NCBI GenBank assembly: GCA_964550085.1
Contig: CAZJXR010000005.1
Location: 1 to 53,945, forward strand
Direction of reading: 5' to 3'
Length of the DNA stretch: 53,945 bases
DNA from: an uncultured Gemmatimonadota bacterium
GTDB taxonomy: Bacteria; Gemmatimonadota; Gemmatimonadetes; Palauibacterales; Palauibacteraceae
Positions 3-41,396 of this stretch are shown here, piece after piece. Position numbers and translations under genes: made by a program. The notes beneath the pieces were generated by a model, which made no database searches, was not told where the DNA came from, and saw only the letters and a program-made list of their open reading frames with translations. How positions within the stretch are numbered: position 1 is the first letter of the stretch; each line of letters begins with the position of its first letter.

Positions 3-380
3 TTTTGCGCGGCCCTGGCCGGTGCAGCGATCTGCTTTCTGTGGTTCAACGCGCCGCCGGCCCAAGTCTTCATGGGTGATACGGGGTCATTGGCCCTCGG
101 GGGGGCGATCGGGATCGTCGCCGTTCTGCTCAAGTCGGAGTTTCTGCTCCTCATCGTGGGCGGCGTCTTCGTGGCCGAGGCACTGTCCGTGCTGCTGCAA
201 ACGGGCGTGTTCAAGCTGTTCAGATGGCGGACCGGAACCGGCCGCCGCCTGTTCCGGATGGCACCGCTTCACCACCATTTCGAGCAGTCGGGGTGGCCGG
301 AGACACGGGTGGTGATTCGTTTTTACATCGTGGCGATCATGTGTGCCCTGATGGGACTCGCGACCCTGAAGATCCGATGA
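3..380 (+). CDS. mraY: Phospho-N-acetylmuramoyl-pentapeptide transferase, C-terminal part (5' truncated by window edge)
   Basis: Frame is open from base 3: [22 protein letters not shown] ... [13 protein letters not shown], which are MraY signature motifs. Followed by murD. Confidence 0.97.
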
Positions 381-407
381 GGATGAGAGAGAGGTCGGCA
401 GGCACCG

Positions 408-1796
408 ATGAATGAAACCCGCCCGCGCCTCAGTTCGGGAATACGCGTGGCGATTCTCGGAATCGCGCGCTCCGGCGCGGCCGCTGCGAGACTGGCCCAC
501 GCGCGCGGAGCGAAGGTGTTCGTCAGCGAAGCGGCGGCGGGTCCCGAGCAGCTGGCGGCGTCCGAGCGGCTTCAGGCCGAGGGGATCGAGGTGGAAACGG
601 GCGGCCATGACACGGAGCGCATCCTGGCCAGCGACCTGGTGGTCGTCAGTCCCGGGATCGATCCGGCCACCGAGATCCGACGCGCGCTGCGCAACGCCGG
701 AGTCCGTCCGATCGCGGAGATCGAGCTCGCCTTTCGCGAGCTGGATTCGCGCGTGATCGGGATCACGGGCACGAACGGCAAGACGACGACTTCGGCCATG
801 TGCGGCCACTTGCTGTCGTCGGCGGGGCTCTCCGCGGTCACTGCCGGGAACATCGGTCGACCGCTGTCGGAAGTGCCACTGATGGACGAGCAGCCCGATT
901 GGGTCGTGGTCGAGCTCAGCTCCTTCCAGCTGGCCGACATCGACACGTTCGCGTCCGATATCGGCCTGGTGCTCAACCTCGCACCCGACCATCTCGATCG
1001 CTACCGGAGTCTCGACAGTTATTACGAGGACAAGGGGCAGCTGTTTGCCAACGCGAGCGAGCGGAGTCAGTGGGTGATCAACGCCGATGATGCTGCTGTC
1101 ATGGCAATCGCCGAAGGCTGCCCCGGGGACCACTTTCAGTTCTCGACCACCGGCAAGGTGAAGCTCGGCGCATACCGGGATGGGAAGGGCTTCCTTCGCC
1201 TGTCCCTCCCGGGACGGAAGGCCCGCCTGCTGCGCGAACGGGAACTCCTGCTCGTCGGTCGGCACAACGCAGGCAACGCGCTGGCCGCGAGTCTGGCGGC
1301 TGCCCTCGCCGGCTGCACCGACGGCCAGATCAAGGACGGTCTTGCCAGCTTTCAACCGCTTCCGCACCGGCTCCAGCCGGTCGGCGTGCACGATGAGGTG
1401 CTGTGGGTAAATGATTCTAAGTCGACCAACGTGTCGGCCACTTCCGTTGCCATCCAGTCCTTCGATCGGCCCATCGTCCTCTTGCTCGGCGGTCGTCACA
1501 AGGGGGAGAGCTACGCGCGTCTCGGTTCGCTCCTCGGCGAGCATGTGCGCGCCGTTATCGCCTACGGCGAGGCTGCGCCGCAGATCGTAACCGAGCTCGA
1601 GCCGCACGCACCACGGCTCGAGATCGCGAGCGGAATGGACTCGATCGTTCGCAAGGCCGCCGAACTGGCCGCCGCCGGAGACGTTGTCCTGCTCTCGCCG
1701 GCCTGCTCGAGCTACGACATGTTCCCGAATTACGAGGCTCGCGGGCGAGCGTTCGAAGCTGCCGTCCGCGACCTGTACGCGGTCGCGCCCTCATGA
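408..1796 (+). CDS. murD: UDP-N-acetylmuramoyl-L-alanine:D-glutamate ligase
   Basis: GIARSG Rossmann start, GTNGKTTT P-loop, ELSSFQL, DHLDRY, NDSKSTN, LSPACSSYDMF. dcw position. Confidence 0.97.
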   Translation: MNETRPRLSSGIRVAILGIARSGAAAARLAHARGAKVFVSEAAAGPEQLAASERLQAEGIEVETGGHDTERILASDLVVVSPGIDPATEIRRALRNAGVRPIAEIELAFRELDSRVIGITGTNGKTTTSAMCGHLLSSAGLSAVTAGNIGRPLSEVPLMDEQPDWVVVELSSFQLADIDTFASDIGLVLNLAPDHLDRYRSLDSYYEDKGQLFANASERSQWVINADDAAVMAIAEGCPGDHFQFSTTGKVKLGAYRDGKGFLRLSLPGRKARLLRERELLLVGRHNAGNALAASLAAALAGCTDGQIKDGLASFQPLPHRLQPVGVHDEVLWVNDSKSTNVSATSVAIQSFDRPIVLLLGGRHKGESYARLGSLLGEHVRAVIAYGEAAPQIVTELEPHAPRLEIASGMDSIVRKAAELAAAGDVVLLSPACSSYDMFPNYEARGRAFEAAVRDLYAVAPS

Positions 1797-2944
1797 GCGC
1801 TTCCCTCCGAACCCTGCGAACCGTCGGCCTGGTGCGGTCGCGATCCGGAGCCGCCTGGGAGGGGAGGACACTGCTCATCCTCACCCTCGTGTTGGTGATG
1901 TTCGGGCTCCTCTCCGTGTACAGCGCCAGCTCGTTCATGGCGCAGGCGGAGGGTCACCCCGACAGCTACTATCTCGTAAACCAGGCGACACGCGTCGCGA
2001 TCGGCCTCGTCGCGCTGTGGCTGACGAGCCTGATCGACTACCGGGTCTATCGCCGTCTGGCGTGGCCATTGCTCGTCACCGCTGCGCTCCTGCTGCTCAT
2101 CCTCCTGCTCCCTGTAGGCGACGCGCTCGCCCCGCCGGTGAACGGAGCCCGGCGCTGGCTCGATGTCGGCGTCACCTTCCAGCCGTCGGAAGTGGCTAAG
2201 CTGGCGGTGATCGTGTGGACCGCGGCTCTCGCTGTGCGCAAGCAGGACCGGTTGCGCAGCCTGCGCAAGGGCCTGCTTCCTTTCCTGGTCATCGTGGGGC
2301 CGATCTGCCTGCTGATCCTCGCCGAGCCCCACTTTTCGGCGGCCCTGCTCACGGCGACGGTCGCGGCCACCCTCATCTTCTGCGCCGGCGGTCGGGTCGG
2401 CCACTTCGCCTTCCTCGGCTTGCTTTCTCTTCCGGTCCTGTGGGATCAGGTCATGAACACCGGATATCGGACCAACCGTGTCATGGCGTTCCTCAACCCG
2501 AGCACCACCGCGTCTGATATCGGATACCAGCTCAACCAGTCGTTGATCGCGGTCGGGTCGGGCGGCTTATTCGGAGTCGGCTACGGGAAGAGCACCCAGA
2601 AGCTCTTCTATCTGCCCGAACCCCACAACGACTTCATCTTCTCGATCATCGCCGAGGAATGGGGCCTGGTGGGCGCGGGGATCCTGATCCTGCTTTTCGC
2701 CGGCTGGGTCCTGATCGGACTTCGCATCGCCGACGCCGCTCCCGACCTGTTCGGCCGGCTCGTCGCTATCGGAATCACCATGCTGATCGGAGTGGGTGCC
2801 TTCGCCCATGTCGGGGTGGCGATCGGCCTGCTGCCCACCACCGGCGTGAACCTCCCGTTCGTTTCCGCTGGCGGGACCAACCTGGTTCTCGCACTGGGGG
2901 CAACCGGGATCCTCCTCAACATCGCCAGGCGACGGAGATGTTGA
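1793..2944 (+). CDS. ftsW: SEDS peptidoglycan polymerase FtsW
   Basis: Multi-TM protein with GARRW, FQPSEVAK, YLPEPHNDFIF, PTTGVNLPFVSAGG. ATGA overlap with murD. Confidence 0.95.
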   Translation: MSASLRTLRTVGLVRSRSGAAWEGRTLLILTLVLVMFGLLSVYSASSFMAQAEGHPDSYYLVNQATRVAIGLVALWLTSLIDYRVYRRLAWPLLVTAALLLLILLLPVGDALAPPVNGARRWLDVGVTFQPSEVAKLAVIVWTAALAVRKQDRLRSLRKGLLPFLVIVGPICLLILAEPHFSAALLTATVAATLIFCAGGRVGHFAFLGLLSLPVLWDQVMNTGYRTNRVMAFLNPSTTASDIGYQLNQSLIAVGSGGLFGVGYGKSTQKLFYLPEPHNDFIFSIIAEEWGLVGAGILILLFAGWVLIGLRIADAAPDLFGRLVAIGITMLIGVGAFAHVGVAIGLLPTTGVNLPFVSAGGTNLVLALGATGILLNIARRRRC

Positions 2945-40712: not shown

Positions 40713-41324
40713 TCAATATCGGCGGATCACGCCGACCACGATCCCGCGCACGCGCACGCGTGACTCGGGATACAGCATCGGGGAAAGATCCGGGTTGGCC
40801 GGCTGCAGTCTCACCATGCCGTTCGCCTCGCGGTAATACTTCTTCATGGTGGCGTTTTCCCCATCAGTGAGTGCGATCACCATCTCTCCGTTGTGGGCCA
40901 CGTCCCGGGTCTGCACGATGACGTAGTCCCCGTCGCGGATCTGTTCGTCGATCATCGAGTCTCCGCGAACCCGGAGCACGTAGTGGGCTCCGGGAGAGCC
41001 GGCGACGAGGTCCTCCGGAACCGAAATCGCCTCCGGGGTCTCGATCGCCTCGATTGGCTCGCCGGCCGCGACCGTGCCGAGCAGCGACAGCTCGACCGCT
41101 GCGAGTCGCATGTCGGCGCGCACGAGCTCGATCGAGCGGCTCTCGTTGTAGCTCTTCCGGATGTACCCCTTCATTTCGAGGTTGGAGAGGTGCTCGTGGA
41201 CGGTAGCCAACGACCGGTAGCCGAAGTACCCGGCGATCTCTTCGAAGCTGGGAGAGTAGCCGTTCGCTTCGAGAAAACTCTCGACGTAATCGAGGATCTC
41301 TTTCTGTCGCCGGGTCAGCGCCAT
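40713..41324 (-). CDS. lexA: SOS repressor LexA
   Basis: GGAG then ATG at 41324. LTRRQ winged HTH, VAAG cleavage site, GDSM catalytic Ser, TMKK catalytic Lys. Confidence 0.98.
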   Translation of the reverse strand: MALTRRQKEILDYVESFLEANGYSPSFEEIAGYFGYRSLATVHEHLSNLEMKGYIRKSYNESRSIELVRADMRLAAVELSLLGTVAAGEPIEAIETPEAISVPEDLVAGSPGAHYVLRVRGDSMIDEQIRDGDYVIVQTRDVAHNGEMVIALTDGENATMKKYYREANGMVRLQPANPDLSPMLYPESRVRVRGIVVGVIRRY

Positions 41325-41348
41325 CTCCGCTCCCCTCCGGGGTCGGTA

Positions 41349-41390
41349 CCGAATGGAAACCGAAAGAAAGGTACCCGAACAGGAACCGAA
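41349..41390 (-). promoter_or_regulatory. Two candidate LexA operators, TTCGG-N6-TTCGG (41349-41364 and 41375-41390)
   Basis: Plus strand reads CCGAA-TGGAAA-CCGAA and CCGAA-CAGGAA-CCGAA, 25-66 bp upstream of lexA, overlapping its predicted promoter. Confidence 0.75.
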
Positions 41391-41396
41391 AAACAA
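41368..41396 (-). promoter_or_regulatory. Sigma-70-type promoter of lexA
   Basis: Minus strand TTGTTT (41396-41391), N17, TACCTT (41373-41368). Confidence 0.6.

Follow-up and report, generated by a model that had tools for sequence, protein, structure and literature searches.

The promoter of the lexA gene encoded in the 53,945-nucleotide stretch of Gemmatimonadota DNA analyzed here (the window) contains two copies of the direct repeat TTCGG-N6-TTCGG, which we interpret, with a probability of roughly 0.85, as the LexA operators (SOS boxes) of this organism. This interpretation draws on the sequence and geometry of the repeats, their conservation in related genomes, their reappearance at other core SOS genes, and a residue of the LexA recognition helix that varies along with the spelling of the box.

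The window gene itself scores 192.6 bits against the TIGR00498 lexA equivalog profile (cut-off 110.95), and its product can be aligned over its full length to LexA chains of solved structure. The VAAG cleavage-site, GDSM and MKK stretches are in register in these alignments, which indicates that the self-cleavage apparatus (Ala-Gly site, Ser, Lys) encoded by the window lexA is intact. We take the Ser and Lys within the GDSM and MKK stretches to be the catalytic pair. In E. coli LexA, this pair is Ser119 and Lys156 (PMC3091678, in excerpt). The lexA ORF as listed extends upstream to a TTG at position 41396, an extension that overlaps the putative operator. The gene and its promoter are laid out as follows:

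40713..41324, minus strand: lexA coding sequence, 203 aa, starting at the ATG at 41324, TIGR00498 match
41325..41338, minus strand: candidate ribosome-binding region (from the sequence), directly 5' of the ATG, sense strand GGAGGGGAGCGGAG
41349..41364, minus strand: proximal LexA box (predicted), TTCGGTTTCCATTCGG, 27.3 bits, genome rank 3
41368..41373, minus strand: candidate -10 hexamer TACCTT, TAnnnT frame conserved in relatives
41375..41390, minus strand: distal LexA box (predicted), TTCGGTTCCTGTTCGG, 28.2 bits, genome rank 1
41391..41396, minus strand: candidate -35 hexamer TTGTTT, TTG conserved in relatives (which read TTGCGy)

Read in the sense direction of lexA, the region comprises, in turn, TTGTTT, TTCGGTTCCTGTTCGG, a single G (41374), TACCTT, TCT, TTCGGTTTCCATTCGG, 24 nt including GGAGG, and the ATG at 41324. 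Exactly 17 nt separate TTGTTT from TACCTT, and these are made up by the distal box and the single G. TACCTT is followed, after 3 nt, by the proximal box, which therefore covers the expected transcription start, and both boxes lie at most 72 nt from the lexA start. On the plus strand, the repeats appear as four CCGAA words (41349-41353, 41360-41364, 41375-41379 and 41386-41390), paired two by two at a period of 11 bp, with 26 bp from the start of one pair to that of the next. A first-pass annotation, made from the letters of the window, had described precisely this arrangement, i.e., four CCGAA pentamers in two pairs of 11-bp period, one filling the 17-bp spacer and the other covering the expected transcription start, and the sequence bears it out on every point. 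The spellings given there for the two sites (TTTC-N7-GTTC and TTTC-N7-ATTC) and for the recognition helix (SLATVHEHL, residues 38-46) are likewise correct.

A simple sigma-70 scan called no promoter at lexA, because TTGTTT and TACCTT each match the consensus at only three of six positions, and our assignment of the two hexamers as candidate -35 and -10 elements is based instead on the conservation of these flanks in relatives (see below). A search against Rfam yielded no RNA around lexA, nor at the predicted site on contig C218 that is listed further on. Both window boxes are followed by GGTACC, which raised the possibility of a Geobacter-like GGTT...ACC palindrome instead; this candidate was rejected, as relatives show no conservation of the bases that follow the proximal box.

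Conservation was evaluated on two sets of genomes: the best 80 lexA loci of a species-level genome collection, mostly labeled Gemmatimonadota with a tail of Vicinamibacteria / Acidobacteriota, and an even sample of the phylum with 81 genomes, of which 77 had a lexA, with the upstream sequence read for 75 primary copies of the gene. These relatives are kin and not independent, so that the counts given here overstate their statistical weight, and some counts take in one locus each from the unpublished genomes G057, G088 and G093, whose removal would shift each count by at most one. Of the 59 Gemmatimonadota-type loci, 57 have two exact TTCGG-N6-TTCGG copies in the 250 nt preceding lexA, and the other two have one copy. 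Start-to-start spacing of the two boxes was 24 to 27 bp in 52 of these 57 loci, and 26 bp in 33. On the 5' side of the distal box, the three letters of TTG were found at 56, 57 and 56 of the 57 loci (consensus TTG(CGy)), and on its 3' side, within G-TAnnnT, the T was found at 54, the A at 53 and the sixth-position T at 54, while the 6-nt spacer inside the distal box varies freely among relatives. Judged from these aligned promoters, conserved flanks around a free spacer are the pattern of a putative protein-binding site laid into a -35/-10 promoter.

The even sample gave a similar picture within the window's class, where 56 of 61 genomes had two exact boxes at lexA and the remaining five had one exact box together with a one-mismatch or an inverted box, so that the comparison of lexA upstream regions across the phylum, as proposed with the first-pass annotation, found two copies conserved throughout the class. 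The TTCGG box was not found at lexA in any of the 14 genomes from other Gemmatimonadota classes, which carry TTCGC-N6-TTCGC instead (usually as two boxes in family f8). The earlier suggestion that the repeat defines the LexA operator of this lineage is thus very probably right for the window's class, but too broad for the phylum as a whole. A second, lower-scoring lexA paralogue occurs in 19 genomes of the sample (families f2, f4, f5 and f6; regions L255-L269). The 15 of these 19 paralogues whose upstream regions were examined all lacked a TTCGG box, and therefore probably read another motif or are not autoregulated.

As a cross-validation, the whole genome was scanned with a 19-column matrix built from the lexA sites alone, the core columns of which are invariant because only exact matches had been collected. 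The nine best matches (at least 19.7 bits) all fall outside coding sequence, and matches below 19.7 bits are mostly intragenic, with coding status taken from rough gene calls in which three over-long ORF starts were corrected by hand. Beyond the lexA promoter, the high-scoring matches include:

C32:15453, 27.7 bits: imuA-imuB-dnaE2 cassette 85 nt downstream
C25:19450-19468 (L082:2450-2468), 26.5 bits: acylphosphatase, then an Fpg/Nei-like DNA glycosylase
C9:22336-22351 (L083:4336-4351), 26.1 bits: about 50 nt upstream of the gene for a 468-aa secreted protein
C218 (L084:1143-1161), 22.8 bits: 117 nt upstream of an SLT-domain (lytic transglycosylase) gene, 343-1026, minus strand
C31, 22.3 bits: intein-containing radical-SAM gene, PA0069/Rv2578c family
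C3:57926-57944 (L086:3926-3944), 21.9 bits: about 58 nt upstream of a GyrA-like gene, L086:1334-3868, minus strand

The cassette on C32 encodes a weakly RecA-like 240-aa protein, a Y-family (IMS) protein and DnaE2 (NF004225, 1360 bits), and its box overlaps a TATCTT hexamer located 17 nt after TTGATC. The recA gene is preceded by a one-mismatch site, TTCGC-N6-TTCGG (16.2 bits), which is inverted and overlaps the -35 element of a TTGCGA-N17-TATAGT promoter. No site was found at either of the two uvrA or the two ssb genes of this genome, with a best score of -0.2 bits. Among the repair genes at which the first-pass annotation had expected further copies, the prediction therefore held for imuA-imuB-dnaE2 and, with one mismatch, for recA, but not for uvrA and ssb. 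A separate feature of the imuA promoter (L081:1453-1482; C32:15453-15482) is a third, degenerate half-site, TACGG, again 11 bp on, which gives a second matrix match of 18.2 bits and suggests that more than one LexA dimer may load there.

For two of the other predicted targets, the box does not extend to related genes. Orthologues of the Fpg/Nei-like gene had a box within 900 nt in 0 of 11 cases in relatives, and a box was seen at 0 of 29 homologues of the 468-aa protein, so that neither target is conserved. The 468-aa protein (447 aa from its likely start) is secreted, His-rich and without a family match, and a third TTCGG occurs 6 nt beyond its box; on this evidence the C9 site could be either a lineage-specific target or a chance site. 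Near the C218 site, a 547-aa plus-strand ORF (L084:1271-2914) was discarded as spurious: it runs antisense to real genes, namely a moaC-like gene (1213-1713, minus strand) and a DNA polymerase III delta'-like (holB-like) gene (1772-2887, minus strand), and the matches in relatives contain stop codons. The radical-SAM gene on C31 (L085:3109-5397, plus strand) is split by an intein that carries a LAGLIDADG domain (NF038136, 477 bits; Pfam intein and LAGLIDADG_3), and its box is inverted and overlaps the -35. The GyrA-like gene on C3 is a second paralogue (TIGR01063, 914 bits), the higher-scoring primary gyrA being split over C108 and C94. Of the 19 relatives that have this second paralogue, 5 carry a box ahead of it, inverted in the same way, vs. 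0 of 30 for the primary gyrA, and a second type-II topoisomerase subunit that is possibly under damage control would be unusual. Further down the list, a site on C21 (L088:2333-2351, 18.1 bits) lies 93 nt upstream of a NudE-like Nudix hydrolase gene and reads TTGATC-box-T-TAAATT, an arrangement like that of the distal lexA box.

Recurrence at SOS genes was also assessed in relatives, using a 14-bit threshold that was chosen after viewing the score distribution of this genome. Sites of at least 14 bits were detected upstream of recA in 19 of 30 relatives (24 of 30 at 11.5 bits or more), compared to 0 of 178 same-size windows of the recA loci. The recA site is spelled TTCGT-N6-TTCGG in family f4, and three in-class relatives that have lexA (G027, G059 and G049) showed no site at recA. 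Upstream of the SplB-like radical-SAM gene, sites were present in all 29 relatives (vs. 1 of 141 same-size windows), often as two opposed boxes about 25 bp apart. Genes for ImuB-like or Y-family polymerases had a site of 22 to 27 bits in five of six cases, and the sixth sits behind a radical-SAM gene with its own box. These six stem from a narrow search, in which the ImuB-like protein used as a probe matched only 7 of the 81 genomes. The ImuA-like protein was dropped as a probe, as its matches beyond its own gene were weak (E-values 3.5e-7 to 8.5e-4) and most covered residues 32-122 only, coinciding with recA genes. In five relatives (G004, G040, G046, G054 and G067), the radical-SAM gene is located 0.4 to 5 kb upstream of an ImuA- or ImuB-like gene on the same strand, and one box may control a radical-SAM-plus-polymerase operon there.

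Control promoters were free of such sites. Primary gyrA promoters gave 0 of 30 (best score 10.2 bits) and 0 of 240 other windows, and the control promoters together (primary gyrA, second lexA paralogues and homologues of the 468-aa protein) gave 0 of 74, with same-size windows in total scoring as high in 1 of 559 cases. A count of dyads made without any preset pattern found TTCG-N7-TTCG in 51 of 59 recA and radical-SAM upstream regions vs. 3 of 30 controls, and the top-ranked dyads at these two genes are sub-words of TTCGG-N6-TTCGG. Taken at sequence level, the conserved targets predicted for the class are lexA, recA, the SplB-like radical-SAM gene and error-prone polymerases. Recurrent LexA targets listed in the literature include lexA, recA, error-prone polymerases, imuA-imuB-dnaE2 and SplB (PMC8565304, in excerpt).

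The lexA promoters outside the window's class offered a second spelling of the box, TTCGC-N6-TT(C/T)GC, which was found at Vicinamibacteria-type loci (L048-L079) and in other Gemmatimonadota classes (families f8, f9 and f10; regions L180-L198, L208, L212, L217, L218, L230 and L235). We compared the LexA helix-turn-helix between proteins whose own promoter is of the TTCGG type (n = 60) and of the TTCGC type (n = 29, i.e., 21 Acidobacteriota-type loci and 8 from Gemmatimonadota families f8 and f10). At position 44, all 60 proteins of the TTCGG type have Glu and all 29 of the TTCGC type have Lys, position 36 is Tyr or Phe in 60/60 vs. Leu in 29/29, and position 61 is Glu in 51/60 vs. Arg in 28/29. 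The rest of helix 3, S-x-A-T-V-H-x-H-L (S38, A40, T41, V42, H43, H45), is invariant in both groups. A Glu facing a C, and a Lys facing the G of the opposite strand, make chemical sense as partners of the two spellings. Position 44 aligns with Glu45 of E. coli LexA, one of the DNA-contacting residues of helix III (PMC3091678, in excerpt).

This co-variation between residue 44 and the box is suggestive, being what is expected if LexA reads the box. It is not statistical evidence, since the Glu/Lys switch was probably a single evolutionary event. A more far-reaching reading would be that residue 44 alone sets the fifth base of the half-site, with Glu reading TTCGG and Lys reading TTCGC, and that the Gemmatimonadota and Vicinamibacteria boxes form one evolving family connected by small steps, to which the direct-repeat boxes of Patescibacteria and Alphaproteobacteria might belong as well. 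We regard the idea of a one-residue rule within one evolving family as tentative, and somewhat more likely to be wrong than right, and it contrasts with the several independent origins suggested for direct-repeat LexA motifs (PMC7739468, in excerpt). If true, it would provide a natural recognition code for LexA that can be tested by swaps.

How far could the two repeats be explained without LexA as their reader? An origin by chance, or from the base composition of a T-rich intergenic region, would fit the observation that the bare TTCGG-N6-TTCGG pattern is not enriched genome-wide, with 25 copies in the 3.55-Mb assembly vs. 11 to 37 for N3 to N10. As other spacings give similar counts in the assembly, this bare count is no argument, and the significance of the box comes from the positions of the T-rich-spacer copies and from conservation in relatives. 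Within the window, two copies were observed, both at lexA, vs. 0.14 expected, and only 1 of 100 shuffles of the window reached two. Two exact copies occur at the same place in 57/59 and 56/61 related lexA promoters although their spacers vary, and the 74 control promoters had none, which refutes chance as an explanation and leaves it with a negligible probability.

The repeat could also be the operator of another damage regulator, of the DdrO/IrrE or PafBC type, with lexA merely one of its targets. Systems of these types control recA and repair genes in other phyla. LexA-independent damage regulons are known (PMC8072749, PMC8682763, both in excerpt), but it is precisely at lexA that nearly all genomes carry the box twice, which is the signature of autoregulation, the gene set is the classical LexA core, and the recognition-helix residue of LexA changes with the fifth base of the half-site (60/60 vs. 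29/29). We consider a different damage regulator improbable on these grounds, and slightly more so a positive promoter element, i.e., an alternative sigma factor site or a built-in activator site. The latter would account for the position of the box between a conserved TTG... and TAnnnT at lexA, and at recA of several relatives, as well as for the lack of a consensus sigma-70 promoter called at lexA. However, neither the orientation of the box nor its place with respect to the hexamers is constant: it lies within the spacer at lexA, over the transcription start in the case of the second lexA box, and inverted over the -35 of the recA and radical-SAM genes of this genome. Its 11-bp period is also unlike that of a -35/-10 pair. 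Such varied orientation and position fit an operator and not a fixed promoter element, and the interpretation of the repeats as LexA operators remains the one that we favor.

A box of the form GTTC-N7-GTTC is reportedly used by Acidobacterium capsulatum. The same GTTC-N7-GTTC direct repeat is the LexA box of Alphaproteobacteria (PMC8565304, in excerpt), and the Gemmatimonadota box resembles it in being a direct repeat with an 11-bp period and a TTC core (nTTC-N7-nTTC is readable in every site), and in its placement in lexA, recA and imuA-imuB-dnaE2 promoters. It differs in its invariant word, which is TTCGG here, with a G before the first TTC in 14 of 114 sites and before the second in 64 of 114. 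GTTC-N7-GTTC is also absent from the 25 most enriched dyads of the recA and radical-SAM upstream regions. The likeness to GTTC-N7-GTTC drawn in the first-pass annotation thus stands for the direct repeat and the period, but not for the conserved word, and a literal GTTC definition failed because the G is missing from the first half-site in most sites. On sequence grounds, the Gemmatimonadota box would appear to be the known direct-repeat LexA box in a new spelling, likely working the same way.

Closer at hand is the TTCGC-N6-TT(C/T)GC box of Vicinamibacteria and other Gemmatimonadota classes, which shares the period and the placement between a -35 (TTGAC) and a -10 (TAnnnT). The LexA proteins of the 21 Acidobacteriota-type loci are 53 to 61% identical to that of the window, and the recognition helix differs at one residue. 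The TTCGC type is distinguished by the fifth base of its half-site, C and not G, and by Lys in place of Glu at LexA residue 44, and it usually comes as a single box in Vicinamibacteria-type loci, vs. two in Gemmatimonadota family f8. We know of no published description of TTCGC-N6-TT(C/T)GC boxes at lexA. The direct repeat described for Balneolaeota, TTACACATATTTTWTACATA (PMC7739468, in excerpt), belongs to a regulon with lexA, recA, translesion polymerases and a radical-SAM protein, but its half-site sequence is unrelated to that of the present box.

The first-pass annotation had further held that this operator was not characterized before. Searches of titles and abstract openings, with most subscription journals outside their coverage, returned no published LexA motif for Gemmatimonadetes, Gemmatimonas or Gemmatimonadota, which agrees with that view as far as the phylum is concerned. 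A direct-repeat LexA-binding motif had nonetheless been published in 2017 for Patescibacteria (Sanchez-Osuna, Barbe and Erill, Environ Microbiol 2017;19:3465), a paper that is cited among the independent origins of direct-repeat LexA motifs (PMC7739468, in excerpt). That motif is likewise a direct-repeat LexA site, from a different phylum. If its consensus were TTCGG-N6-TTCGG, the present box would be the same spelling in a second phylum and not a new one.

Under the favored interpretation, each 16-bp box would be bound by one LexA dimer, whose two winged-helix domains would be arranged head to tail, with one helical turn (11 bp) between their half-sites, as is assumed for the alphaproteobacterial GTTC-N7-GTTC box. 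At lexA, one dimer would occupy the promoter spacer and the other the transcription start, and with one box in the spacer and one over the start, bound LexA would exclude RNA polymerase, which amounts to autorepression. Upon DNA damage, RecA-stimulated self-cleavage of LexA would then free the lexA promoter, and the same cleavage would jointly release imuA-imuB-dnaE2, recA, the SplB-like radical-SAM gene and a few lineage-specific genes.

LexA is a textbook regulator whose binding motif drifts widely between phyla, and each newly defined motif is a data point on how this drift happens. The predicted operator, together with a first regulon, would cover a major class of soil and sediment bacteria for which there is almost no genetics, and the matrix allows damage-inducible genes to be predicted in metagenome-assembled Gemmatimonadota genomes. 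The split between TTCGG and TTCGC, with its Glu/Lys partner in LexA, is the most useful new lead, as it may represent a specificity switch that is testable with two proteins and two oligonucleotides.
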